From the NCBI GenBank assembly GCA_964016885.1, contig OZ024754.1:5518001-5582000 (forward strand): a stretch of 64,000 nt of DNA, given 5' to 3'. This DNA is from Eledone cirrhosa (Eukaryota). Positions 2,775-62,076 of the stretch are shown one piece after another; the stretch's first letter is position 1; every line of letters starts with the position of its first letter. The notes beneath the pieces were generated by a model that saw nothing but the letters and a program-made list of their open reading frames with translations, ran no database searches and was not told the DNA's origin. Position numbers and translations under genes: made by a program.

Positions 2775-3339
<565 letters not shown>

Positions 3340-4616: not shown

Positions 4617-5223
4617 CAGGTCACCAGTTGGTGCTACTGGTAACATGTATCCCAGTACAACCTGTCTCATGGTCGGGTCGTTGGCGACTAAACTGGCAAC
4701 CCCACCAAGGTTTCTTGGTGAGGAGGGTAACTTTGGACATCCTGCAGGACTAAAAACAAAACCTGTCAAATGGCAAAGGAGCTCTTAAGAGTCAATGGCC
4801 ATCCAAAATCACCGGGAGAGATGACCCCTTAGCCTTTGTCAAGACAGAATTCTAGGAGAAGGAAATCTCTGATATAACACCTGCAACTCTGATGGTATCC
4901 AATGATGTTGACTTGTTCTTCGTTTTGGTAAATATCATCTTGGTTAAGAGAGTGGGACTGGCTTTGTGCAGTGCCTTTGCTCACTATAAAAGCTTCACGG
5001 CACAGGCATTGCTTTATATCTGGAGATCTCTCTGCACTTGTCGTCACATGGTACCATGGACCCAGCACTATGTGTCAATAATTGTCACAAGTGTAGTGTT
5101 TGTACTAGAGTTTTCAAGTCGCTGGCTGGACTAAAAAGTCACACTTGTTCAGCGCATCGGTAGGGGTTCTCCTACATGGATATAAAGTAGTGGCCGTACT
5201 CGAAAAGGAGTTGGCAGCCACCA
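4617..5223 (+). mobile_element. Non-coding interspersed retro-element embedded in (TATG)n, copy 1
   Basis: Highly similar inverted copy at 48147-48698. TATG arrays on both sides. Confidence 0.85.
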
Positions 5224-6124
5224 TGTATGTATGTATGTAGGTAAGTAGGTTTGTATGCTTGTATGTATGTATGTGTATATGTATGTATGTTTTGTAGGTA
5301 TGCATGTATGTATGTATGTATGTATGTATATATGTATATATGTATGTATGTATGTATGTATGTGTATATGTATGTAGGTAGGTAGGCATGTATGTATGCA
5401 TGCATGCATGTATGTATGTAGGTATGCATGCATGCATGCATGTATGTATGTATGTATGTATGTATGTATGTATGTATGTAGGTAGGTATGTATGTATGCG
5501 TGTTGGGCATGATCTGTGTATGTGTCGTGTGTGTCTATCCGTGTGTGTGTGTGCATGAATGTATGTGAGGGTGGTGGCATTTGTCTGCACTTATGAACGT
5601 AAATGTACTATCAATATGTGTGTGGGGGTGGGTGTGTGTGAGTGTATGTAGGTGTGTGGGTGTGTGGGTGTATGTAGGTGTGTGTTCGTGTGTGTGTGTG
5701 TAGGTTGGTGTACCGTCTTCAGGTTAAACTCCACCGCGTATGGTATCTTATTTCTATCTTTTACAAATTGTTTTGTCTTCTTCTTCTTCTTCTTCTTTTT
5801 CTTCTTCTTCTTCTTCTTCTTCTTCTTCTTCTTCTTCTTCTTCTTCTTCTTCTTCTTCTTCTCACCACCTACCACCAATCCGCCACCCACCACCCCACAC
5901 CACTCATCACCTCCACACCCAAAACAACCACCATCACCAACAACAACAACAACAACAACAACAACACCACACACACTGCCACCACCCACCACTATCACCA
6001 CCCACCACCACCACCACCTCCCGATAGAGAGTGAGAGAAGTTGGAGAGAATGAGGGACAGAGAAATATAGAAAGAGATTGAGAAAGAGAGAGATAGCCTG
6101 AGGCAGAGAGAAACCGACAGACAT

Positions 6125-7263: not shown

Positions 7264-7435
7264 GTAACAATGATAAATTTGAAGACTAAAATCCAAAGAG
7301 GGCTCGATAAGGATAAATATATATCAAATATATAAGAACCCCAGAGCAAATATTTATTAAAATAACAGATTAAAGTTTAAGCAAAGAATAGCTGCAATTC
7401 TTTGCTTAAACTTTATTCTGTTATTTTAATAAATA
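7264..7435 (-). mobile_element. Fold-back family D copy (tail on left)
   Basis: ttattaaaataacagattaaagtttaagcaaagaat plus its inverted copy. The tail matches the one at ~60995-61080. Confidence 0.85.
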
Positions 7436-7450
7436 TATATATATATATAT

Positions 7451-7647
7451 ATTTTATAGAAGGAGCTTCTACAGGACTAGTACTGTTTCATTCAGATGAA
7501 ATCTTCAGGAAGCTTCCTGAAGATTTCATCTGAATGAAACAGTACTAGTCCTGTAGAAGCTCCTTCTATAAAATAAAAAATTTTACTCTGCCATGTATTG
7601 AGTACCTTACTTACTGTGGTTATCCCCGACTCAACCCGGGGCCTACG
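7451..7647 (+). mobile_element. Fold-back family E: perfect 62-bp-arm palindrome plus tail, with hammerhead core
   Basis: Centre at 7512/7513. The right arm has CTGAAGA tttcatctgaat GAAAC agtacta GTC. Related pieces at 24419-24531 and ~31160-31190. Confidence 0.8.
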
Positions 7648-7719
7648 TATATATATATATATATATATATATTGAGTTAGACAAGGCCTGGGCAAAAACA
7701 GGCGGACACCTATCAAAGT

Positions 7720-7759
<40 letters not shown>

Positions 7760-7763
<4 letters not shown>

Positions 7764-7990
7764 TATAACAGATTAAAGTTAAAGCAATGAATCGCTGCTT
7801 TCACCCTTAACATTAAGGGTGAAACCAGCGATTCTTTGCTTAAACTTTAAAGCAAAGAATCGCTGCTTTCACCCTTAATGTTAAGGCTGAAAGCAGCGAT
7901 TCTTTGCTTAAACTTTAATCTGTTATTTTAATAAATATGGTTCTTATATATTTGATGTAAATTTATCCTCATCACATTTATTATTATTTC
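7760..7990 (+). mobile_element. Family D four-arm (double) palindrome
   Basis: Inverted-direct-inverted-direct arms centred near 7848, followed by a degenerate tail. Confidence 0.85.
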
Positions 7991-8158: not shown

Positions 8159-8339
8159 CGGTAGTTTGGCAGTATCGGTAGTGTCAGACATCATGCTTTG
8201 CAGCATAGAGCTATGGCCCTTTGTGTTCTGAGTTCAAATCCGCTGAGGTTAACTTTGCCTTTCATCCTTACGGCGTCGATAAAATAAAGTACCAGACAGG
8301 CACTGGGGTAATTGCTGGCCTTGTGACAAAAGTAAAAAC
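8159..8339 (+). mobile_element. tRNA-derived SINE, group 1
   Basis: A-box tggcagtatcgg and B-box gagttcaaatcc. Body ttgcctttcatcc...gataaaataaagtaccag is shared by many copies. Confidence 0.85.
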
Positions 8340-8575: not shown

Positions 8576-8865
8576 TTTAAGATCGTAATATGGACAAAAC
8601 AAGCGAAGGACACCTTCGTCAGCTGTTATATGCAAATCATAAATGTTTCGGAACTTAAAATAGAACATAAACAGCGATCAGCAGCGTGCCCAAGGCCTTT
8701 TTTGATGTCCTGTTTTAAGCGCCGAAACATCTATGATATGCTGTTAACAGCTGACGAAGGGGTCCGTCTCGTGTTTCGTCCATATTACCATCTTAAATTT
8801 TGTTTACAGTAACGACACAGCTAAGTATATATATATATATATATATATACTTAGCTGTGTCGTTA
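8576..8865 (+). mobile_element. Fold-back family F (diverged arms) plus a short inverted terminus across a TA tract
   Basis: tttaagatcgtaatatggac...ccttcgtcagctgtt versus aacagctgacgaagg...gtccatattaccatcttaaa. 8810-8825 is inverted at 8850-8865. Confidence 0.75.
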
Positions 8866-15310: not shown

Positions 15311-15400
15311 GTGTAATGTGTAAAATGTAGATTATAAGCTGTTATACAGACGAGAGACAGGAGATATACTAACCGAACTAAAGCTTCAGTAACGAAATAA

Positions 15401-15584
15401 TTGTTTCTACTTTTGGCACAAGGCCAGCAATTATCCCAGTGCATTACTGGTACTTTATTTTATCCACCCCTTAAGGATGAAAGGCAAAGTTAACCTCGGC
15501 GGGATTTGAACTCAGAATGGCAAGGGCCGTAACTCTATGCGTCAAAGCATGGCATCCGACCCTCTACCGATACTGCCAAACCAC
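15401..15584 (-). mobile_element. SINE group 1, full length, with 17-bp TSD
   Basis: TSD cttcagtaacgaaataa at 15384-15400 and 15585-15601. Confidence 0.9.
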
Positions 15585-16502
15585 CTTCAGTAACGAAATA
15601 AGGAATTCTAATTCCTGTAGAGACAGCGAATTGCTAGAGTCGTTAGAACAACGTATAGAATGGTTTGCGGCATTCGTTCTCACTGCGGAGATCAACTTTG
15701 AGCAGAGATCAATTTTGAGCAGAGATTATCATTGAGCCGAGATCAATTTTGAGCCGAGATCAACTTTGACATTCATTGTTTCGGGATCGATAAAAATAAG
15801 TACCAGCCCTGTACTAGGACCAATTCTTCCCGTATATTTCTTTCACTGTTCCTCTCTATGAATGTTTTTTCTTCTTTGAAATTAACAGGATATATTCTCA
15901 CTACATTCAAAATAAGGAGGGGACGAATGCTAACGGCTGGGACATTTTTTTTATTATAGGATTGCTGTATTAAGGTTGACCTGGGGTTAAACGACAACAA
16001 TAACACCACCACCGACAACAACAAAATAACAACAAATAGTTAAGGTTTAAATTAAAACAAATGAGCGGAGTTGATATTTATCTATTTATGTATTTATTTG
16101 TTTTGCTTATTCTAGAAGTATTAGTGAAACCTGATGAGTAGCTATGTTCTCCTGAGACGTAGGTGTCACACAGTCTCTGTAATCCATTTTACAACAACTA
16201 TTGACAGTCCATCAAATGAGACTTTACCAGCGGAAATTAAAATCAGAATGAACATATACTTTTGTTTTTCGTTTTTTTTTTCGTTTTTTTTTCAAACATG
16301 TCATTTTAAAAACCACAAAGCGCTACCCCCTCTACATTTAATTCCCTCTCTCTATCTATCAATCTATCTATTTCTCTCTCTCACTCTCTTCATATATATA
16401 TATATATATACATATTCATCTCGTTATATATATATCTATCTATCTATTCATCTATTCATGTATCTCTCTCTCTCTCTCTCTCTACCTACCAATATCCCTC
16501 TG

Positions 16503-16533
<31 letters not shown>

Positions 16534-16784
16534 CAATATGTGTGTGTCTGTGTGTGTGACAGCTCACACCTATGCAGGTTTAGCTGGCCTCCTCCAAGAT
16601 ATATCTCGTTGGAGGTGTGTTGGGTGATTTAATGATAGGGACCCCAGTCCTTTCATCTCATTTCTACAGCTGAGTAAACTGTCTTGCTCAAGGAAACAAC
16701 ACATCACCCGGTGTGAGAATTGAACTTACAACCTTTCGATTGCAAGCCCAAAGCTCTAACCATTAAGCCATGCGCCTTCACACA

Positions 16785-17115: not shown

Positions 17116-17185
17116 TATGTTTATATATATATATATATATATATACGATATTAATAAATGGAAACTATATTTATAAAACCATATT

Positions 17186-17250
17186 TATTTCATTATACAT
17201 ATTTCAGGGATACCACATTAAATTATGGCATGCCTTCATCAGACAAAATA
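17186..17250 (-). ncRNA. Type I hammerhead ribozyme (family B copy beginning at 17146)
   Basis: Reverse complement: tattttgt CTGATGA agg...cct GAAA tatgta TA atgaaata. Confidence 0.85.
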
Positions 17251-17807
17251 CAATATATAACAGTTTTACAAATAGGTTTGACGTACCCTTTAAAATACAA
17301 CCATTCCTTTTGGAGGCTGTCTGGATAGTGATTTGTTTATATAATAAGTCATAGTGTTAAGCACAATTAGAAAAAGACGGAGAGAAAGAAAGAGAAAAGA
17401 ACAAAGACAGAGAGAGAGAAAGAAAAGAGAAAGAAAACCTGGAGAAATATCGGAGAGAGAGAGAAATGTATGGAGAAAAGAAAGAGATAGATAAAGATAG
17501 GAGGAAATAAAAAAGAATATGTATATATATATATATATGTATATTCCTTGAAATCTCTAAGAAATTTTGACATGCCACTATTTGATATTAAAAGAGGAAA
17601 AGTGCCACTTAATACAGACTCTAAAATATCTTGGAACAGCAACAAAAATAAGAACTTACACAAACAACAGCGGAATCAATAATAATATGGTATTGAAATG
17701 AAATATTTCTACAATAGAATATGAATATAGAAATTAGCTGTTGCAATAACACAGAGATATACGTTCGTATACACCCATATAATGAATATATTTATGGTAG
17801 GTGAGTA

Positions 17808-18393
<586 letters not shown>

Positions 18394-20789: not shown

Positions 20790-20893
20790 CACATACGCGC
20801 ACATATAGACAAACACATATGCGCACCTCTACTCATACATAAACAATACAGTGCAAGGGGAAAATATATTACCTTAACATTTTAACATAGAAC

Positions 20894-21042
20894 TGTTTCT
20901 ACTTTTGGCACAAGGCCAGCAATTAACCAGTACATTACTGGTACTTTATTTTATATACCCCGTAAAGGATGAAAGGCAAAGTGAACCTCGGCTGGATTTG
21001 AACTCAGAATGTCAAGGGTCGTAACTCTATGCATCAAAGCAT
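20894..21042 (-). mobile_element. SINE group 1 (5'-truncated)
   Basis: Matches 15401-15550. Confidence 0.85.
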
Positions 21043-22222: not shown

Positions 22223-22310
22223 AGAATTTGACGGGACTAACTAAGGTTTCCCGGCTAGTACCGGTATTTATATATATATTTATATATATTATATATATAT
22301 ATATATATAT

Positions 22311-22515
22311 AGGAACGAGTAGGACCCCGACAGCTGAGCTCAAGCCGTTTCGACGGCTAAAACTTTGACTAAATTTAGTCCAGAATTAGCCGTCGAAACG
22401 GCTTGAGTTCAGCCGTCGGGGTCCTACTCGTTCCTATTACCCACTCTACTACTCTAAGTATTGAGTACTTTGGTGCGTTATGGTTCACCTGGTTCCTTAC
22501 CACATTTCCTTCGTT
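22311..22515 (+). mobile_element. Family A copy 2
   Basis: Same arm / inverted arm / tail layout, flanked by TA repeats. Confidence 0.85.
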
Positions 22516-23095: not shown

Positions 23096-23196
23096 TATAT
23101 ATATATATATATATAAAGAAAAAGAGATGAAATCGAAAATGCAACTGGAGTCTTATTTTTTTTTTTAAATTAAAAAATATATATATTTATTTGGTT

Positions 23197-23234
23197 CCTT
23201 TACCGGTTTCGCAGTTCTTCTGCTTTTCAAAAGG
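23197..23234 (-). ncRNA. Minimal hammerhead with U3-A8 core variant (family H copy 2, element ~23116-23276)
   Basis: Reverse complement: cctt TTGAAAA gcag-aagaa-ctgc GAAA ccgg TA aagg. Confidence 0.75.
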
Positions 23235-23272
23235 TGAGTTGAGATGGAGGGTCTGTGGTTTTTCTCACATCT

Positions 23273-23348
<76 letters not shown>

Positions 23349-24088
23349 TAACAGATTAAAGTTTAAGCAAAGAATCGCTGCTTATATATATATATAAATA
23401 TATATATTATATTAATATATATATATATATATGTTAAGACACACAACAAAATATAAATAAATACGTACAGACGTACTCAGTCACCCACAAACACACACTC
23501 ATGCAAACACACTCATCCATACACATACACTCATACGAAGACACACACATGCGCAGAGATATGTACACAAGCTCACATGTTCATTTCTGTCCCGCTGCGT
23601 GCCATCTTAAAAGAGTTCCTTTTAATCATAGGCTCGAGTCAATCCAATCCATGTCAATAACATCGAGGCGACGGAAGCCCTATGGACGATGCACTACGAA
23701 TTAAATAGTGAGAGAAAAGAGTACTTAGTACTGAAAGTTGAAATAATTAAAGACTTTAGGTCTCTTTTTTTTTATTATTATTCTTTTTGGAGAGTTGGGT
23801 TCGGGGCGGAGTGAAATATTCAGAAACCGCTATTCTGAATTTCAAGATGCTGAACAATCGTTAGAAAATCGAAAACAAGCCAGCTAGATTATTGATTTAA
23901 GAAGTCTTACTTACGTAGTCACACAAGTTTTATTTCCATGGCATTCGTGTATTTTATATCGAATTATAATAATACTCGATACTTTGGAAGCAAACAGCCT
24001 CACAACTCCATGTGTTTTAGACGGCATCGTCATCCTTTTTTTTCTATTGATGGCACCACTATATGGCATATACATATATACATTTATA

Positions 24089-24185
<97 letters not shown>

Positions 24186-24187
<2 letters not shown>

Positions 24188-24382
24188 CGAAGGAAATGTG
24201 GTAAGGAACCAGGTGGACCATAACGCACCAAAGTACTCAATACTTGGGGTAGTAGAGTGGGTAATAGGAACCAGTAAGACCCCGACGGCTGAGCTCAAGC
24301 CGTTTCGACGGCTAATTCTGAGTCCAGAATTAGCCGTCGAAACGGCTTGAGCTCAGCCGTCGGGGTCTTACTGGTTCTGGTT

Positions 24383-28475: not shown

Positions 28476-28824
28476 GTATACTCGTATAAAATATATAAAA
28501 TTTTAAAAGCAGCTGAAGTGAAAAAGATTAAGTTAGAAATTGGCTATAATCCATTGAAAGAGCATATTTAGAGATTTCTAGATTGACAGAGAGCTGGAGA
28601 ATGTGGTGACAGAGAGGCATACGTATTAATATGGCGGAAGATTGAAAGATGGCTGAGTATTTTTACCTCCATATACACAAGATTGAAAAGTAACTATTTT
28701 GACACTTATTGAAATATGACGCACTCAGATGGGTAGATATGTAAGATGAAAGACAGAACTATGATGTTATATTAATGTTCAGACCGTTTGCATCCCAGCA
28801 CATTCTGTTGGAAGGTGGAGAGTT

Positions 28825-29887
28825 GGAAGAGTCGTTAGGTCGTTGGATTAAAACTGATTCTGTGTTTGATCTGGCTTCTTTGCGACATGTGTTCAAATCT
28901 CACACTTGTAAACTTACCATTGAATAGTTAACAAAGCGGTGAATATAACCCTAGCCCAATATTGGAGTCGAACCTTCTCTCTTTCTTTCTCTCTCTTACC
29001 CTCTCTCTCTTGTTCTCTCTCTCTTTCTCACTCTCTCTCTCTCTCTTCTCTTGGCAGAGTCATTAGGTCGTTGGATTAACCATGATTCTGTGTTTGATCT
29101 GGTTTCTTTGCGATACGTGTTCAAATCTCACACTTGTAAACTTACCATTGAATCGTTAACAAAGCGGTGAATATAACCCTAGACCAATATTGGAGTCGAG
29201 CCTTCTCTCTTTATCTCTCTCTCTCTCTTACTCTCTCTCTCTCTTGTTCTCTCTCTATTTCTCCCTCTCTCTCTTCTCTTGGCAGAGTCATTAGGTCGTT
29301 GGATTAAACATGATTCTGTGTTTGGTCTGGCTTCTCTGCGATACGTGTTCAAATCTCACACTTGTAAACTTACCATTGAATCGTTTACAAAGCGGTGAAT
29401 ATAACCCTAGACCAATATTGGAGTCGAGCCTTCTCTCTTTCTCTCTCCCTCTCTCTTACTCTCTCTCTCTCTTGTTCTCTCTCTATTTCTCCCTCTCTCT
29501 CTCTCTTCTCTTGGCAGAGTCATTAGGACGTTGGATTAAACATGATTCTGTGTTTGGTCTGGCTTCTCTGCGATACGTGTTCAAATCTCACACTTGTAAA
29601 CTTACCATTGAATCGTTTACAAAGCAGTGAATATAACTCTAGCCCAATATTGGAGTCGAACCTTCTCTCTTTCTCTCTCTCTCTTACTCTCTCTCTCTTG
29701 TTCTCTCTCTCTTTCTCACTCTCTCTCTCTCTCTTCTCTTGGCAGAGTCATTAGGACGTTGGATTAAACATGATTCTGTGTTTGGTCTGGCTTCTCTGCG
29801 ATACGTGTTCAAAACTCACACTTGTAAACTTACCATTGAATCGTTTACAAAGCGGTGAATATAACCCTAGTCTAGTATTGGAGTCGA
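28825..29887 (+). repeat. ~228-bp tandem array (4.6 units) of degenerate SINE head plus CT-rich spacer
   Basis: Unit starts at 28825, 29053, 29281, 29513 and 29741. B-box-like gtgttcaaatctc. Confidence 0.9.
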
Positions 29888-36860: not shown

Positions 36861-36912
<52 letters not shown>

Positions 36913-36953
36913 ATAATATTAATAAATGGAAAATATATTTATAAAACCATATT

Positions 36954-37014
36954 TATTTTATTATACGTATTTCAAGGGTACTAATATTTTAGTACGCTTT
37001 CGTCAGATAAAATA
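36954..37014 (-). ncRNA. Type I hammerhead ribozyme (diverged family B)
   Basis: Reverse complement: tattttat CTGACGA aag-cgtactaa aata ttagtacc-ctt GAAA tacgta TA ataaaata. Confidence 0.85.
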
Positions 37015-37968
37015 CAATAATTGGTGTAAAAATAGTGACATATCTTCATGTGAACTTCGTGTTATAAGTTCATTGAAGGTAGTGAATAAATTTTCAAAAC
37101 TCAGGATAAATATGCTAATGAGGATAACGTTAAAACTGAAAAGGACCGTTAATTTTAGACACTAGATAGATTTTAAATAATTATCTAAATTATTTTTTAA
37201 AAAGTGTTTGCTATTAAATTTGAAAACTCATTGTTTATATATATATAGTTGCACATTGCTGTGGTGTTCAACCGTGATTGGGGTCGTGGTGTATGGAGAT
37301 AGTTAGGCTGTTGCTGATGATGTGTGCTGTTGCTGACGATGAAGTAGCTAAGATTTGAAGTAGTAATAGTGGTGGTGGTGGTGGTGGTCGTGGTGGTCGT
37401 GGTAGCGACGGCGGCGATGATGATAGGTGTGGGGGTTTTTCTGACGTGATGCAGCGAAGGTGTGAGAATCTAAGACAACATGGTGTTAGGTGTTAATGAA
37501 CTAACAAGCAATGTGGACAATTTACTTCGTCGGTTGCTTCTCATTCAACGCTTTTTTTTTTTTTTTTTTTTTTTTATTTCATTTTAGCGAGGGATGCTGA
37601 AAAGTGAAACACTCTGCTGCAATGAGGGAGTATGAAAGAGAGGATGTAGGGAAGATGGTTGACTGAAGAATTAAAGCAGATGGAGGTGAAGAGAGTAGGA
37701 GGTTTGATGTGGGGGTGAAGGAGGATTCTGTGGTGCAGGTCGGCCAAATTTGTGTGAAAATACTGGTCGGTTGTTATGTTACTTTCAAGGGGGTAAATGA
37801 TCATCTGTATTGGATAATTTCAGGTTTCCAGACAGAATTTTGACGCCAAATTTGCTTCATTGTGACAGATTTCGCGCTCTACACGACCCTCTAATTCAGA
37901 CTACGCGCGCTACTCCGCTCCGATCCAATCTGCTATAAACATGCATACACAATCACACAGTCATATAA

Positions 37969-38350: not shown

Positions 38351-38617
38351 AATAACTAACAAAAAGTTATCGCTCAACATGGCTGAATACAATAAATGTA
38401 ATCGGAGGATTTCGAAGATAAATAATATTCGATTCGTTTGCAATTATGCAAACATACTCTTTTAAGCTATGTCTGTAGAATGAAACCTTCATTCTAGCTC
38501 TTGTGTTGGCATGTAAACAGAAATGAGGGGTTCATTCTACTTACATGGCTTAAATGAGGCTGTTTGCATAATTGCAAATGAATCGAATATTATTATTAAT
38601 ATTCAAAGAATTTAGAT

Positions 38618-39557: not shown

Positions 39558-39733
39558 TATCGGTAGAGGGTCGGACGCCATGCTTTGACGCATAGAATTA
39601 CGGCCCTTGCCATTCGGAGTTCAAATCCCGTCGAGGTTAACTTTGCCTTTCATCCTTACGGGGTCGATAAAATAAAGTACCAGTAATTCACTGGGCAATT
39701 GCTGGCCTTGTGCCAAAAGTAGAAACAATTATT
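39558..39733 (+). mobile_element. SINE group 1
   Basis: B-box ggagttcaaatcc and the conserved body. Confidence 0.85.
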
Positions 39734-39876: not shown

Positions 39877-40076
39877 NNNNNNNNNNNNNNNNNNNNNNNN
39901 NNNNNNNNNNNNNNNNNNNNNNNNNNNNNNNNNNNNNNNNNNNNNNNNNNNNNNNNNNNNNNNNNNNNNNNNNNNNNNNNNNNNNNNNNNNNNNNNNNNN
40001 NNNNNNNNNNNNNNNNNNNNNNNNNNNNNNNNNNNNNNNNNNNNNNNNNNNNNNNNNNNNNNNNNNNNNNNNNNNN
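39877..40076. other. Assembly gap (200 N)
   Basis: Run of n. Confidence 1.
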
Positions 40077-40432
40077 AACAGTTTTATAGATAAATATATT
40101 CGACATACCGTAATAAACATCAACTTCATTTGAAGAGGTTCACTCTAGCAGTGAAAATACAGAGAGAAAGAAAGAGAGAGAGAAAAGAGGGAAATAAGAA
40201 AGAAAGAAAGACGAAACGAAGAAAAGGAAGAAAAAGAAGAAAAAGAAGAAATGCATGGGACAAAATAGAGAGATGGAAAAATAGATAAAGCGAAGAGCTT
40301 CATGTAAAGAGACCGAAAGAGATATATATATATATATAGAGAGAGGAAATAGAGATAGATACATATATAAATATAGATATAGAAAAATTAGGTAGTGGGA
40401 GGTCATTTTGAGTAAGTGTATCAATGATGCAT

Positions 40433-40467
<35 letters not shown>

Positions 40468-40838
40468 GCTCAAGTATTAATGTAAGGGAGATATAGAGAG
40501 ATATAGAGAGATATAGAGAGAGAAAAATTTAAAAATAGCCAGACATATTCGAGGCGTAGAAAACCCTATGTTTTAATGTATTAGTATTTATAAAACTTAC
40601 ACTATATTGTAAATATCAGTATTCCTGAATGAAACAAGTATTCACAATGCGTGAAAATTCATTATCTTATGTTTAGTTTTTTAAAAAATTCATATGTCTA
40701 TGTGAATCCAACTGATTCACTCCGCAAATTCAAAGTTACCGGAAAACATTCTCAATGTGGTATAAACATTTGAGCGTATTATTATTCTTGCGATTACTCT
40801 ACAAGATTATCTATCAAGCAGAAATAGAGAGCAGATTT

Positions 40839-40994
40839 TTTAATTCATCCTCTGAGACATGTGACCTCTGCGCAGAGGAGATATTCTTTATACTAAAATC
40901 TAAAAATTCCCTTAACCTACGGACAAATTTATTCAGTTGTTGCAAACATAGATTAAACTCAACGTTTAAATATAAATTTAAATTTAAAATGTAG
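40839..40994 (+). pseudogene. C-terminal remnant of a PLE ORF (endonuclease end with CxxC)
   Basis: NSSSETCDLCAEEIFFILKSKNSLNLRTNLFSCCKHR fits the CxLC..E....L....LN.R..L.S.C(R/K)H pattern I recognise from invertebrate PLE ORF ends. Not verified by search. Confidence 0.65.
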
Positions 40995-42117
40995 TATATT
41001 TAGTTTGATTTATATTTATATGAGAACTAGCCGATAAATCTTTTGATTCCTAAATCTTTGATTCCCTCTTTTTACTGTTTATTTTTTATTGTATTTATTT
41101 TTATTTTTATTTTTTATTTTTATTTTTATCTAAACATTCCTCATGAAAAATTAAGCTACCCTAAAAGCCGATGCTCCAAATTTTATGAATTAACCTTACA
41201 CTTGATAAACTTATATATTAAATATAGGAACATATGTAGACATTATTGGACATCATAACCTTTTTTTTTTGCGATATTCCTTGCTAGATGTGATTTGATA
41301 GATAATTTTTGGCTTTGTCTTGTAGTGAACTTGGCAATATATTGTCAATTAACCTTGAAGGGTTGTTCTTTGTGGTTTATTTTTTATTTTTATTTTTATT
41401 TTTATTTTTATTTTTATTTTTATTTTTATTTTTATTTTTTATTTTTATTCTTTTAGTATTGTAGTATTCTATAATATTTTTATATTTTTATTTTTTATTT
41501 TTTATTTTATTTTATTTTTATTTTTAATATTTTTATATGTAAAGTTTTAATACGTAATAATTTTAAAACATAGTATTTTTAATATGCAATATTTTTATTA
41601 TGTAATATTCTTTCGTAATATTCTTTTTTAGTTTTCTATTCTATATTTTTATATTTTTATATATTTTTACTTATTATCATTATTATTGTTATCTCTGCTT
41701 ATAATATAATATATATTTTCGATTAATATTTTCGATTGGTATATTGAAATCTGCTCTCTATTTCTGCTTGATAGATAATCTTGTAGAGTAATCGCAAGAA
41801 TAATAATACGCTCAAATGTTTATACCACATTGAGAATGTTTTCCGGTAACTTTGAATTTGCGGAGTGAATCAGTTGGATTCACATAGACATATGAATTTT
41901 TTAAAAAACTAAACATAAGATAATGAATTTTCACGCATTGTGAATACTTGTTTCATTCAGGAATACTGATATTTACAATATAGTGTAAGTTTTATAAATA
42001 CTAATACATTAAAACATAGGGTTTTCTACGCCTCGAATATGTCTGGCTATTTTTAAATTTTTCTCTCTCTATATCTCTCTATATCTCTCTATATCTCCCT
42101 TACATTAATACTTGAGC

Positions 42118-42152
<35 letters not shown>

Positions 42153-42515
42153 ATGCATCATTGATACACTTACTCAAAATGACCTCCCACTACCTAATTT
42201 TTCTATATCTATATTTATATATGTATCTATCTCTATTTCCTCTCTCTATATATATATATATATCTCTTTCGGTCTCTTTACATGAAGCTCTTCGCTTTAT
42301 CTATTTTTCCATCTCTCTATTTTGTCCCATGCATTTCTTCTTTTTCTTCTTTTTCTTCCTTTTCTTCGTTTCGTCTTTCTTTCTTTCTTATTTCCCTCTT
42401 TTCTCTCTCTCTTTCTTTCTCTCTGTATTTTCACTGCTAGAGTGAACCTCTTCAAATGAAGTTGATGTTTATTACGGTATGTCGAATATATTTATCTATA
42501 AAACTGTTTATATTG

Positions 42516-42581
42516 TATTTTGTCTGATGAAGGCATAGCATATTGTTAATATGATATCCCCGAAATATATATAATGAAATA
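42516..42581 (+). ncRNA. Type I minimal hammerhead ribozyme (family B)
   Basis: tattttgt CTGATGA agg...ccc GAAA tatata TA atgaaata. Confidence 0.8.
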
Positions 42582-42992
42582 AATATGGTTTTATAAATAT
42601 AGTTTTCCATTTATTTAATATTGTAAATATACTCCAAGTATTTGTCGAGTGCTTTTATATCAGTTATAAATATTTACTAGTTGTAACCCAACAATTTTAA
42701 ATATAACTTTACATGTATACATACGTATATATATTTATAAATAAATAAATATATATATATATATTCAATAAAAAATATAAATATATATATATATACAAAT
42801 ATATATACATACTTATAAATAAATATATATATATATATATTCAATAAAAAATATAAATATATATATAATCAAATATATATACATATGTATATATCTTTAT
42901 AAATAAATAAATATATATATATATATATTAAATAAAAAATATAAATATATATATATATACAAATATATATACATATGTATATATATTTATAA

Positions 42993-43029
<37 letters not shown>

Positions 43030-43433
43030 TATATATATATATTTATATAATTGTCCTAGCAGGTTGATTTTTCGCCCACATGAGGGGTTTTTCTTTTCTT
43101 ATTTGCGTTCCTCTTTTATATATTTTGAAAATTATATTTTTCTCATGTCTCGTTGTAATTCTTGCATGTATTTCAATGTACTCCTTATAAATGTGTATGT
43201 ATGTATGTGTATGTATGTATGTATGTATGTATGTATGTATGTATGTATGTATGTATGTATGTATGTATGTATGTATGTATGTATGTATGTATGTTTCTAT
43301 CTATCTATCTATCGATGTGTATGTGGTTATGTATATATATATGCGCGGTCTGGTGGCAAGATATATGTCTCTCTCTCGTTCTCTTTATGAAAATATACAT
43401 ATAAGTGTGGGGTGGTGTATTGATATCTATCTA

Positions 43434-43477: not shown

Positions 43478-43572
43478 ACGAAGGAAATGTGGTAAGGAAC
43501 CAGGTGGACCATAATTAGTCCAGAATTAGCCGTCGAAACGGCTTGAGCTCAGCCGTCGAGGTCCTACTCGTT

Positions 43573-43575
<3 letters not shown>
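43477..43575 (-). mobile_element. Family A copy 4 (tail-bearing arm cut to ~38 nt and joined to the tail-less arm)
   Basis: aacgaaggaaatgtggtaaggaaccaggtggaccataa is fused to ttagtccagaattagccgtcgaaacggc...gttcct. Confidence 0.85.
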
Positions 43576-45536: not shown

Positions 45537-45908
45537 CCCTTTAGCATTTAAACCGGCCATATCCGGCCAGAATTCTCTCACCTCATTCTGTGCAAACTAG
45601 CCATAACCGGCCACTCATACTGATGTTAAGGTATTGTTCTCAAAACAAATAATTATTTCTACTTCTGGCACAAGGCCAGCTATTACCCACTGTATTACTG
45701 GTACTTTATTTTATCGACCCCGTAAGGGTGAAAGGCAAAGTTAACCTCGACGGGATTTGAACTCAGAATGGCAAGGGCCGTAACTCTTCTCTCTCAAAAC
45801 AAATAATATCAAAATCTCATAGATTCGATATGTGAGATAATTATGTGAGGTAAAGCTTTTACCGTGAAAGTATAATAGTAAATATAGAGCAATGTAAATG
45901 CTAAAGGG
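45537..45908. mobile_element. piggyBac-like MITE with a nested SINE
   Basis: TTAA-ccctttagcattta ... taaatgctaaaggg-TTAA. The SINE at 45654-45790(-) is flanked by TSD tctcaaaacaaataat (45638, 45792). Confidence 0.85.
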
Positions 45909-47753: not shown

Positions 47754-48098
47754 ACACACAAAGAGACACTCGGACACTTATCAAGGTAGGTAGGTAGGTA
47801 GATGGCTGTTTGGTTGGCTGGTCGGTTGGATAGGATGGATTGGATAGACAGATGACTTACACCAGCGTAGCTTTCATAAAACCTATTCTATTTTGATACT
47901 GTGCCTCTCCTCGTCTAATCTTATTGGAAATAACACACTAGCTTTCACTTTGACAAGCCGAACATGTTGATATAATGTCAGAAGCGCAGAGATGTGAAGA
48001 ATAATAAGTTTCGCCAGAACCGACACTGACACAAGACTGAGAAACCCACATAGATAAATATGTAATTACATATATACATAAATATACACATACATACA

Positions 48099-48132
<34 letters not shown>

Positions 48133-48146
48133 CATACACACGTATA

Positions 48147-48698
48147 TGGTGGCTGCCAACTCGTTTTCGAATAAGGCCACTACTTTATATCCATGTAGGA
48201 GAACCCCTACCGATGCGCTGAACGAGTGTGACTTTTTAGTCCAGCCAGCGACTTGAAAACTCTGGTACAAACACTACACTTGTGACAATTATTGACACAT
48301 AGTGCTTTGCCTTTGGTACCATGTGACGACAAGTGCAGAGAGATCTCCAGATACAAAGCAATGCCTGTGCCGTGAAGCTTTTATAGTGAGCAAAGGCACT
48401 GCACAATGCCAGTCCCACTCTCTTAACCGAGATGATATTTACCAAAACGAAGAACAAGTCAACATCATTGGATACCATCAGGGTTGCAGGTGTTATATCA
48501 GAGTTTTCCTTCTCCTAGAATTCTGCCTTGACAAAGGCTAAGGGGTCATCTCTCCCACTGATTTTGGATGGCCATTGACTCTTAAGAGCTCCTTTGCCCT
48601 TTGACAGGTTTTGTTTTTAGTCCTGCAGGATGTCCAAAGTCACCCTCCTCACCAAGAAACCTTGGTGGGGTTGCCAGTTTAGTCTCCAACGACCCGAC
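48147..48698 (-). mobile_element. Same element, copy 2 (5'-truncated at the position equivalent to ~4672)
   Basis: Reverse complement of 4672-5223. (CATA)n on both sides. Confidence 0.85.
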
Positions 48699-49420: not shown

Positions 49421-49863
49421 TGCAAAAGTTTTATTTAAAATTGTTGGGTTACAACAAGTAAATATTTTATAACTGATATAAAGCACTCGACAAATTTTTG
49501 GAGTAGATATACGATATTAAACAAATGGAAACTATATTTATAAAACCATATTTATTTCATTATACATATTTTAGGGATACCATATTAAAAATATGGCATG
49601 CCTTCGTCAGATAAAATACAATATATAAACAGTTTTATAAATAATTTTGACGTACCATAATATAAGCGACCATTAAATTACCAAGGCAGCCTCCTAATTT
49701 AATGGTCGCTTATATTATGGTACGTCAAAATTATTTATAAAACTGTTTATATATTGTATTTTATCTGACGAAGGCATGCCATATTTTTAATATGGTATCC
49801 CTGAAATATGTATAATGAAATAAATATGGTTTTATAAATATAGTTTCCATTTGTTTAATATCG
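49421..49863 (-). mobile_element. Family B fold-back element (169-bp arms, 14-nt spacer, tail on left)
   Basis: 49512-49680 is inverted relative to 49695-49863. Flanked by (TA)n. Confidence 0.9.
49757..49822 (+). ncRNA. Type I hammerhead ribozyme (family B)
   Basis: tattttat CTGACGA agg-catgccatatt..aatatggtatc-cct GAAA tatgta TA atgaaata. Confidence 0.85.
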
Positions 49864-50007
<144 letters not shown>

Positions 50008-50069: not shown

Positions 50070-50277
50070 AGTTCACAGTATCGGTAGAGCGTCGAACAAC
50101 TTTCTTTGTGGCATATACTTACGTCCCTTTACATTCTGAGTTGAAATGCCACCGAGGTTAGCTTTGCATTTCATCCGTCCATAAAATAAAGTACCAGTAA
50201 TGCACTGGGCTCGACTTAGTCGACATTCCCCTCCCCACAAAATTGTTAGGAATCTGCCTAAATCAGAGAACATTATT
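50070..50277 (+). mobile_element. SINE group 1, diverged subfamily
   Basis: cagtatcggtagagcg...ctgagttgaaat...aaaataaagtaccagtaatgcactggg. Confidence 0.75.
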
Positions 50278-55626: not shown

Positions 55627-55701
55627 GTTCGGTTTATGTGCGTAAGTATATATACACACATACACACACACTCACATCTATATATATATATATATATATA
55701 T

Positions 55702-56002
55702 AGGAACAAGTATAACCCCGACGGCAGAGCTCAAGCCGTTTCGACGGCTAATTCTGGACTAGACTAAATAAGAATTTTTAGCATGGTAAATAAATCTTCC
55801 CATATAAGGAATCACCACCTGAGAAGTTCGGCTATTTATTTACCAGGCTAAAAATTCTTATTTAGTCCAGAATTAGCCGTCGAAACGGCTTGAGCTCTGC
55901 CGTCGGGGTCATACTTGTTCCTATTACCCACTCTACCTCCCTAAGTATTGAGTACTTTGGTGCGTTATGGTCCATCTGGTTCCTTACCACACCTCCTTCG
56001 TT
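55702..56002 (+). mobile_element. Family A copy 5 (longest arms, ~35 nt spacer)
   Basis: Arms extend to ctaaataagaatttttagc / gctaaaaattcttatttag. Tail ends ccttcgtt(at)n. Confidence 0.85.
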
Positions 56003-58435: not shown

Positions 58436-59764
58436 CTAGAGCAAATAAATGAAAAAGAAAAGGAATCCATTCTAGTAGCTTAATTAATTCTTTAACTTCT
58501 CCTACGTGATTAAACTTACGTTGCAGTGTTTATCTTTAATTTCACCATAATAAGTTGTAATGCATCACTCACATTATATGCAACGTCCATTTGCTTCTAT
58601 AATCTTGGATAATTGTGAGGTTCACTAAATTCTGTGAAATTTATCAAGTTACAGTTTGTTCTCTAGTGCTCTTCCTACTGCTGCTGTTGCTGCTGCACCG
58701 TTCTTGATGTTGTTGTTGCTGCTGCTGTTTCTGCTGCTGCTGAAAATTATCAATACTTATTTCTCAAAACATGTGTTCACAAATTTCTGTCGCAATTTAC
58801 GAAATGGCATGTACATTTAACAAATCATGCGATTATTTCTAAATGATTAATTCTCTTCACGGCATAGAATAGGTTTAGTAATGCCAGCTGAAATAGATTT
58901 TTCTTTTCACAGGAGCAGCATAGCAGGTATTTTATCATTACTCGTGGATTGCACACTTCATAAGCTTTAAAATAAGCAATATTTTTTCCAGTGTATGTTT
59001 ATTTTCCTTTTTTTATCATTACCTAGAATACAAATATTTAGAAGGATTTTCATACCAGTCGAAATTGCTACACACATCACTTGATACTTGTAAAAACAGA
59101 ACTACTGAGGCATATAAAATATATATACTCAGTTAATATTTAGATAACTTAGATTACATTTTGATTATATTTCTTTTTATGAAGTTTTTTTTTTCTTTCA
59201 TAGATATATTTTTCTTTGCTCGAAAGTAAAAAAATAATAAAATATTCTTCCAAATCCGTTCATCTTCAGAGCTGTAATAAACAGAGTTTGTAAAGAAATT
59301 TCATCCATGTTATGTTAAAACGTTACAAATATATACTAAGTTGTGTCCTGTTAGTGAAAGCACGAATACTACATATGTTTCTCCCTGTAGTTTAAAAGGT
59401 ATATATTTAACAATACAGAAATATTTATGCTGCATTAAATAACAGATATAAATTATTTGTGGATAAAATTCAAGCCTAAGGAAGATGGAAATAGTATCTT
59501 GTGAGATGTGTAAATACTCTGCTTCCTTGCAAAATTGTCTCATGATATAGTATAATATACAATATCGATATAATATAATATAATATAATACAATATAATT
59601 GTTCTACTTTTGGCACAAGGCCAGCAATTACTCAGTGCATTACAGGTACTTTATTTTATCGAACACAACATATGTTTCTTCCTGTAGTTTAAAAGGTATA
59701 TATTTAAATATAATACAATATAATGCATAATAAAATATAATACATTATACAACATAGTATATAT

Positions 59765-59801: not shown

Positions 59802-59979
59802 CGAAGGAGGTGTGGTAAGGAACCAGATGGACCATAACGCACCAGAGTACTCAATACTTAGGGTAGTAGAGTGGGTAATAGGAAAATGTTTAACCCCGAC
59901 GGCAGAGCTCAAGCCGTTTCGACGGCTATTTCTGAAAATAGCCGTCGAAACGGCTTGAGCTCTGCCGTTGGGGTTAAAC

Positions 59980-59983
<4 letters not shown>
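59800..59983 (-). mobile_element. Family A copy 6
   Basis: Reverse copy. The variant aaatgtttaacccc/ggggttaaacattt is present in both arms. Confidence 0.85.
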
Positions 59984-60434: not shown

Positions 60435-60438
<4 letters not shown>

Positions 60439-60836
60439 AAGTTTTATTTAAATTGTTGGGTTACAACGAGTAAATATTTATAACTGATATAAAAGCACTC
60501 AACAAGTATTTGGAGTATATTTACGATATTAAATAAATGGAAACTATATTTATAAAACCATATTTATTTCATTATATATATTTCAGGGATATCACATTAA
60601 AAATATGGTATGCCTTCTTCAGACAAAATACAATATAAACAGTCTTATAACTACCAAATCAACTTTTTAAATGGAAGATGAAGTTGAAAGGTATGTCAAA
60701 TCTATCTATTTATAAGACTGTTTATATTGTATTTTGTCTGAAGAAGGCATACCATATTTTTAATGTGATATCCCTGAAATATATATAATGAAATAAATAT
60801 GGTTTTATAAATATAGTTTCCATTTATTTAATATCG

Positions 60837-60838
<2 letters not shown>
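60435..60838 (-). mobile_element. Family B fold-back element (129-bp arms)
   Basis: 60522-60650 is inverted relative to 60710-60838. Tail at 60435-60521; (TA)n flanks. Confidence 0.9.
60730..60795 (+). ncRNA. Type I hammerhead ribozyme (family B), mirrored on the minus strand at ~60565-60630
   Basis: tattttgt CTGAAGA agg...cct GAAA tatata TA atgaaata. Confidence 0.85.
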
Positions 60839-60867
<29 letters not shown>

Positions 60868-60870
60868 ATA

Positions 60871-61080
60871 TGCAACGTTTTTTGAAATATCCAGTTCTGC
60901 GTTTACAGATTGACTTTGTTAGTTTCAGAAGATCCCGTTAAGGGTGAAAGCAGCGATTCTTTGCTTAAACTTTAATCTGTTATTTTAATAAATATTTGCT
61001 CTACGGTTCTTATATATTTGATATATATTTTCCTTATCGAGCCCTCTTTGGATTTTAGTCTTCAATTTTATTATTATTTC
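60871..61080 (+). mobile_element. Family D non-inverted copy with a mutated complete hammerhead (60906-60979)
   Basis: agttt CAGAAGA tccc-gttaa-gggt GAAA gcag..ttgc TT aaact, with distal stem cagattga/ttaatctg. Further single arms at 23342-23382, 61919-61960 and, diverged, at ~39175 and ~39319. Confidence 0.75.
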
Positions 61081-61901: not shown

Positions 61902-62076
61902 TATATATATATCTATATAAGCAGCGATTCTTTGCTTAAACTTTAATCTGTTATTTATTATATATGTGTGTGTGTGTGTATGTGTGTATGTATGTATATA
62001 TATATATATATATATATACATACATATATATATATGTGTGTGTGTATGTTTCTGTTTGTGTGTGTCTGTATGTATG

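Follow-up and report, generated by a model that had tools for sequence, protein, structure and literature searches.

The 64,000-nucleotide stretch of Eledone cirrhosa DNA analysed here (contig OZ024754.1; hereafter the window) raises the question of whether its short hammerhead-bearing islands beside (TA)n arrays and the much longer sequence at 40077–42713, which contains the end of an open reading frame (ORF), belong to a single family of Penelope-like retrotransposons (Penelope-like elements, PLEs), as an earlier note had proposed, and in which PLE clade such a family would be placed.

A comparison of positions 40077–40838 with 41747–42508 reveals two arms that are exact reverse complements (762 of 762 positions) with 908 nt between them, so the 762-bp inverted repeat described in the earlier note is present. 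The left arm (minus strand) probably represents an inverted, 5′-truncated partner copy whose 3′ end is directed toward an assembly gap of 200 N (39877–40076), the sole gap in the window; its first base is the first base past this gap, and the sequence on the other side of the gap is not (TA)n. The right arm (plus strand) corresponds to the distal part of the element's 3′ region, and the join at 41746/41747 occurs in contigs from two public sequencing runs, X4 and X5. Arm and ORF have one base in common, T40838, at the inversion junction (40838/40839), which is also the 5′ truncation point of the forward copy as marked by loose contig ends in runs X1, X4 and X5. No junction palindrome is found in the long copy. 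A 92-codon frame from 40716 was considered as a longer gene and rejected, as its first 41 codons derive from the inverted arm.

The segment between the arms opens with an ORF end of 51 codons plus TAG (40839–40994, plus strand), identified by profile match and motifs as a Hydra-type GIY-YIG endonuclease C-terminus. The peptide quoted in the earlier note is indeed read in the plus-strand frame 40836–40991, which includes CDLC...CCKHR followed by 13 residues and the TAG at 40992–40994; its motifs are CxxC-x2-E, LNxR and CxH. Pfam contains no family matching the peptide or five of its relatives, NCBIfam gives no credible match, a word-indexed protein search with the 52-residue peptide confirmed none of three candidates, the ESM Atlas matches are all <0.9 and unnamed, and nothing was found in two metagenome scans. 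A phmmer search of 1.84 billion representatives returned three matches at E ≤ 0.001, one of which is credible (P0003, E 4e-4, with 18/38 identities to the window peptide). The other two, P0001 and P0002, were rejected as tandem-repeat proteins with scores summed over 5–7 stretches.

With P0003 as the query, 25 relatives were obtained from 44 candidates. A 26-protein profile, from which the window peptide was left out although its match had seeded the set, was compared with 1920 six-frame segments of the window and matches this frame alone (E 2.3e-8, positions 613–656 of 674), the next best segment having an E of 2.3 and the best reversed control 1.6; the window therefore holds no other piece of a Hydra RT or endonuclease. 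The match lies in the C-terminal part of the profile and is followed by the stop, which identifies the endonuclease as C-terminal. No RT was recovered for family B, as the hammerhead-bearing family is termed here. The four longest relatives (669–726 aa) all contain RW[KR], DK[TS], YRDD and CxCx5C, and DKG is absent from all 26 homologous proteins; CxCx5C is present in 21/26, and the part of the ORF in which this linker or a CCHH motif would lie is truncated away in the window copy. The peptide thus has PLE homologues by phmmer, relatives and profile.

The clade can be approached through these motifs. According to the passages of Craig et al. 2021 (PMC8557442) on the Hydra clade, its marks are RWK, DKT, CxCX5C, the loss of CCHH, a CxxC and a CxH around conserved E and N residues, and insertion into (TA)n; a 3′ hammerhead is universal in the clade, and Neptune and Naiad too favour microsatellites. 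In Fig. S7 of the same paper, C[NDK]LC-x2-E...LN occurs in the nine displayed Hydra rows and not in Drosophila Penelope. On the basis of the endonuclease tail and the TA context, the fragment likely belongs to the Hydra clade; the C-terminal endonuclease, the CxxC/CxH marks and the TA context agree with the consulted parts of PMC8557442 and support the assignment made in the earlier note. Traits of EN+ PLEs are present at these loci, namely inverted partial copies (two gap-free pairs and, probably, the long copy), a tail at one end and a terminal hammerhead. The N-terminal endonuclease and lack of a canonical hammerhead that characterise Naiad and Chlamys contrast with the C-terminal endonuclease and hammerhead found here. 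Hydra elements are described as generally short (<3 kb, complete elements 2.1–2.7 kb; PMC8557442), whereas the parent of the window family would measure ~4 kb (1.72 kb past the stop plus an inferred ~2.1-kb ORF); size is a typical and not a diagnostic trait.

Behind the stop codon lies a long T-rich non-coding region (40995–42496, plus strand) that includes arrays of (TTTTTA)n, (TAAA)n and TC/TTC. The stop and the hammerhead core are separated by 1529 nt, of which 23% is GC, 49% T and 44% in simple-repeat arrays (TRF), in agreement with the ~1.5 kb of AT/CT-rich 3′ sequence noted earlier. The hammerhead is followed by an optional tail of ~90 nt (42624–42713, plus strand), which is found on one arm only of each paired insertion and is common, up to 42713, to the long copy and two other copies. 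Beyond it is the TA-rich target (42714–43049), which contains an interrupted array at 42726–43049. The tail described in the earlier note is thus substantiated, whereas the (TA)n that was said to follow it is an interrupted TA-rich array and not a pure one.

The 3′ region ends in a predicted minimal type I hammerhead (42497–42595, plus strand) recognised by motif, folding and alignment of copies. The motif comes after the long 3′ sequence, in the order given in the earlier note, with the core at 42524–42530, stem II at 42531–42561, GAAA at 42562–42565, an 8-nt palindromic stem III and a long stem I; cleavage is predicted after 42573. The window contains seven family B ends, with cores at 17242 (minus), 37006 (minus), 42524 (plus), 49610 (minus), 49765 (plus), 60622 (minus) and 60738 (plus). 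Six cores are intact, and in the one at 49610 GAAA has become AAAA. In each end, a long stem I is combined with CUGANGA, a ~10–13-bp stem II and GAAA, a self-complementary 8-mer takes the place of a stem III hairpin, and the cut is predicted after AUA. The pattern of core, stem, GAAA, palindrome and TA has six matches in the window and none in any of 100 shuffles. Over the six distinct hammerhead sequences, 96.8% of cells are paired, compared with 36–57% in slid controls, and two stem II pairs have changes on both sides, both from the 37-kb copy alone; the pairing support is only modest because the structure was drawn from the same copies. Free folding of 42485–42640 is no more stable than that of shuffles (z +0.81). 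With the core held unpaired, stems I and II form, and stem III is intermolecular in two of seven modelled dimers. The hammerheads of metazoan PLEs are described by Cervera and de la Pena 2014 (PMC4209133) as having a short palindromic helix III, acting as dimers and being weak in vitro. At gathering thresholds, Rfam reports no hammerhead in the window, which does not count against the motif because the models can miss minimal PLE hammerheads; its single match is a tRNA-like sequence at 16713–16770 (minus strand), barely over the cut-off and probably the head of a SINE. Stem II of the long copy has an A–C opposition at its base; damage was considered as an explanation and dropped in view of the unpaired bases at such places in the Hydra hammerheads of File S2 of PMC8557442.

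The short islands of family B reveal how such ends are arranged. Two are head-to-head pairs within (TA)n, at 49422–49868 (arms identical at 173/174 positions, 14-nt spacer) and 60437–60844 (134/135, 59-nt spacer), each with a tailed minus arm and a tail-less plus arm. Both complete pairs (2/2) have one tailed arm, and the other arm ends in TA straight after stem I. Two further islands are solo 3′ ends at (TA)n on the minus strand: a tail-less one at 17145–17322, recognised by sequence comparison, and a diverged one at 36910–37060, which carries both two-sided stem II changes. The arms of a pair differ by 1/174 or 1/135, compared with 5–11% between loci in the hammerhead region (more for the 37-kb copy). 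TA arrays adjoin all 7/7 family B 3′ ends, that of the long copy being interrupted, on a high background of 130 arrays of at least 10 TA units in the window. The hammerhead region of the long copy is 87–95% identical to those of the short islands, which part from it 30–80 nt upstream of the core. As judged from the sequence, the long copy is the short pairs' design at a larger scale, with its right end tailed. Because of this tailed right end and the design of the gap-free short pairs, the gap is predicted to hide the remainder of the left arm, a ~115-nt piece in which a further hammerhead, lacking the tail, would be followed by (TA)n.

Other repeats in the window have related or separate layouts. 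A second palindromic family of island-like design occurs at 3063–3249, 22309–22514, 24187–24377, 55700–56001, 59802–59983 and 43478–43574, with head-to-head arms (47–61 matches, 0–2 mismatches), a tail of ~75 nt on one arm and (TA)n on both sides. By eye, its arms resemble the 3′ half of a hammerhead in having GAAAC and GTC together with a stem whose loop is palindromic; a parent ORF for it was not found in the window. An older inverted pair at 8576–8797, whose arms are 77% alike, lies beside TA with a CTGACGA core in each arm (8622, minus; 8751, plus) and is possibly a third ribozyme island family. A perfect 120-nt palindrome at 7453–7572 has CTGAAGA and GAAAC in each arm, a degenerate palindrome (78%) lies beside a TA array at 38421–38594, and another family at 7274–7973, 23116–23382, 60937–61070 and 61919–61956 is composed of short tandem or inverted units beside (TA)n. 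SINE-like copies of ~170 nt, 75–95% alike, are present at 8160–8339, 15395–15585, 18152–18317, 20884–21042, 39558–39733, 45644–45788, 50076–50209 and 59602–59662, one of them 140 nt left of the gap. Additionally, a dispersed 617-nt repeat with a (TATG)n end is found in opposite orientations at 4672–5288 and 48082–48698 (94–96% alike), and at 28823–29887 a 228-nt unit that contains a TC microsatellite is repeated 4.6 times in tandem.

Copies of the family were also sought in public sequencing runs. Part of 40077–42720 is present in 20 of 24 listed runs, runs with small shares being left out. In four listed runs, all from one study, at least half of the words sampled from this region occur, and X5, from a second organism and a second study, contains 0.41, so runs of two organisms hold 0.41–0.69. 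No RNA run is among the listed holders, which has no bearing on expression. Contigs from four runs were aligned to 40524–41375 only, that is, to 852 of 2637 nt, with the main arrays (41376–41690 and 42062–42430) outside. Within this segment, contigs cover 29 (X1), 29 (X4) and 27 (X5) of 30 bins, and pieces from all three runs cross the stop codon. The aligned family sequence covers the 3′ region at 40995–41375 and, via the identical left arm, at 41747–42061. The identities of the contigs to the window range from <90% to >99%, a spread typical of a family that has many copies and is divided into subfamilies. Positions 41006–41318 are skipped or replaced in other copies, by a 313-nt skip from 41005 to 41319 in X4 and by other sequence before 41319 in several runs, and this variation points to subfamilies with unlike 3′ regions.

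The ends of these contigs are informative with respect to the junction. Before 40838, loose ends are found on eight contigs of X1, two of X4 (median 196 nt) and one of X5, and these are mutually consistent. In the 30 letters shown of each, they are by eye in frame and free of stops, and they share the W-x-[IV]-[IV]-x4-P-[YF] spacing with the homologues; 40838 is therefore the 5′ truncation point within a longer ORF. In X4 and X5, the loose ends on the other side, behind 40838, carry the sequence that precedes 41747, and the right arm is therefore the natural continuation of the 3′ region. Among the rows listed, the ORF end has eight variants, of which 6/8 are synonymous and two conservative, whereas 19–27% would be expected to be synonymous (p 0.001–0.006, a test that rests on these eight sites). 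RAD-seq reads of X22, which mostly (0.88) continue into unlike sequence, were kept out of the junction analysis. With peptide homologues, an upstream frame in other copies and hammerheads 87–95% identical, the link from the islands to a PLE ORF that the earlier note had drawn is supported, and the short islands can likely be regarded as stubs of this Hydra-type family.

A comparison with known systems helps to place the family. Members of the Hydra clade such as Hydra-2_Amil and Penelope-13_HM have the same CxxC-x2-E...LNxR...CxH end, 3′ hammerhead and TA targets, and a 5′-truncated inverted copy of 966 nt, like the partner arm here, is annotated in Penelope-13_HM (PMC8557442, entries consulted). 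Several features differ from the corresponding displayed material of that paper. The distance from stop to core is 1529 nt, compared by eye with ~50–180 nt in five of the six Hydra consensus sequences in File S7 (the sixth has no clear stop); GAAAU and a loop-less 8-nt palindrome stand in place of the GAAAC of all Hydra hammerheads in File S2; and the tail measures ~90 nt, compared with 30–40 in published PLEs. Hydra-1_Obim of Octopus bimaculoides has the same clade motifs and TA preference, and differs by eye in its endonuclease tail, its hammerhead and its ~126 nt from stop to core; the unlike endonuclease tail and hammerhead therefore indicate that the window family is not Hydra-1_Obim. The metazoan PLE hammerheads in the relevant part of PMC4209133 are of the same type I, with an extra base past the first core, a G–C pair closing stem II and a palindromic helix III, whereas the predicted hammerhead here has an AU-rich stem I of ~22 bp with bulges and a stem II of 11–12 bp. 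In the rotifer Adineta vaga, Pen1_Av and Pen2a_Av have the same head-to-head inverted ends with a tail at one end only, and Pen1_Av has a comparable spacer of 0.9–1.5 kb between ORF and 3′ pLTR (PMC3846280). The passages on these two elements contain no Hydra-type motifs or TA targeting, and Pen1_Av spacers are unique to each copy, whereas the long region of the window family is largely common to many copies in two organisms. Literature searches listed no description of the window family, and repeat libraries may carry it under another label; a 2026 annotation of octopus repeats (PMC13282606) uses neither "Hydra" nor "ribozyme" in its main text. In its workings the element resembles a Hydra PLE and very probably is one, and by sequence comparison the window family would likely be a new Hydra family, its 3′ region being ~10x that of five Hydra consensus sequences, a length for which there is a rotifer precedent.

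Taken with the observed anatomy, peptide homology, conserved frame and its upstream continuation in other copies, paired layout and TA context of the 3′ ends, the locus is probably one 5′-truncated Hydra-clade PLE insertion into a (TA)n array together with an inverted partner. A parent of ~4 kb (~700 codons plus 1.7 kb) would be transcribed from a tandem arrangement, and its RNA may be cleaved by hammerhead dimers that form via the palindromic stem III. Nicking of (TA)n would fall to the GIY-YIG endonuclease, and reverse transcription would start at the 3′ end, with one cDNA stopping 51 codons into the ORF end. A second, shorter cDNA off the same template would be joined to it head to head at the one-base overlap, and both 3′ ends would therefore point outward into TA. 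The short islands may reflect the same event with copying ended 30–80 nt upstream of the core. The second arm could arise by twin priming or by fold-back self-priming; the latter is favoured for junction palindromes in the relevant passage of PMC3846280. Inverted 5′-truncated copies, one-sided tails and assembly trouble are described for PLEs in parts of PMC8557442 and PMC3846280.

The exact identity of the arms bears on whether the left arm is real. At the arm mismatch rate of the gap-free family B islands, 0/762 mismatches has p 0.007, and p 3e-5 when the other palindromic family is pooled with family B; the copy is therefore much younger than the islands, or its arms were merged by assembly. 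In the latter case, the forward copy would be a real fragment of a Hydra-type PLE and the left arm an assembly product, either a chimera formed by fold-back or a repeat that was collapsed and placed at a contig end. This is in keeping with an arm that starts exactly at the gap edge, with an identity beyond the expectation from other islands, with the lack of (TA)n left of the gap, and with the window-specific base at 40767, which is on both arms and nearly absent from the aligned family sequence. Additionally, among the 24 of 808 contig pieces listed, none extends across 40838/40839 by 31 letters in both directions, although a single-copy junction need not appear among them. However, two family B pairs and five pairs of the other family are gap-free with the same geometry and 0–2 mismatches, the tail rule holds (the right arm is tailed and the left expected to be tail-less), and the junction falls where the ORF is truncated, with an overlap of one base, the arms being 908 nt apart. 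High-depth contig pieces identical to the window occur in X1 and X4, and the subfamily therefore looks young; a recent insertion would explain the absence of mismatches. Genuine PLE structures of this type are also reported to break assemblies in parts of PMC8557442 and PMC3846280. An artefact of the left arm is accordingly regarded as unlikely, and it would not affect the forward copy.

Far less probable is a separate origin of ORF end, 3′ region and hammerhead, whether as independent insertions or as captured host DNA, with the three lying together at this locus only; the islands would then not need to stem from the ORF. The simple-repeat patchwork of the region, the contigs with other sequence or the 313-nt skip at 41006–41318, the departure of the islands 30–80 nt upstream of the core and the position of 41376–41746 and 42062–42720 outside the aligned family sequence would fit such an origin, as would the Pen1_Av spacers, which are described in PMC3846280 as captured host DNA unlike between copies. 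It is countered by contigs that fill 29, 29 and 27 of the 30 bins and cross both the stop codon and the 41746/41747 join, by the 0.41–0.69 of sampled words of 40077–42720 in runs of two organisms, and by the universal 3′ hammerhead of Hydra elements (PMC8557442, clade description). It is hardly to be expected that the element belongs to another PLE clade (Neptune, Nematis, Penelope/Poseidon or Naiad) or is retrozyme-like and non-autonomous. The copy has 51 codons only, Neptune and Naiad share the taste for microsatellites in the same description, and GAAAU with a loop-less palindromic stem III departs from the GAAAC of File S2. Nevertheless, the C-terminal endonuclease rules out Naiad and Chlamys, the CxxC/CxH around E and N is a Hydra feature missing from the Penelope row of Fig. 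S7 in PMC8557442, full-length relatives have Hydra RT motifs, and the frame is conserved among copies.

A Hydra-clade PLE insertion with an inverted partner would add to this clade a family with a 3′ region ~10x the usual length. Since the islands are assigned to an autonomous parent, they can be annotated as PLE 3′ stubs instead of SINEs, MITEs or unknown palindromes. It is plausible that the element spreads microsatellites: it would target (TA)n, carry TA on both flanks and copy (TTTTTA)n, (TAAA)n and (TC)n along with itself, twice if the inverted arm is long. It may even be, though this is a tentative and rather doubtful proposal, that a young high-copy Hydra family with a fixed 1.5-kb microsatellite cargo is, together with its sister palindromic family, a main engine of the simple-repeat load of this genome. 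The formation of inverted ends and one-sided tails in PLEs is named as an open question in PMC8557442, in the part concerned. If the cargo view is true, the many near-identical arm pairs with a single tail would be a large natural record of how PLE inverted ends form. With donors 5–11% apart and the two arms of an insertion differing by <1%, an abundant young family of this kind would in any case make junctions, truncation points and the side of the tail countable genome-wide.
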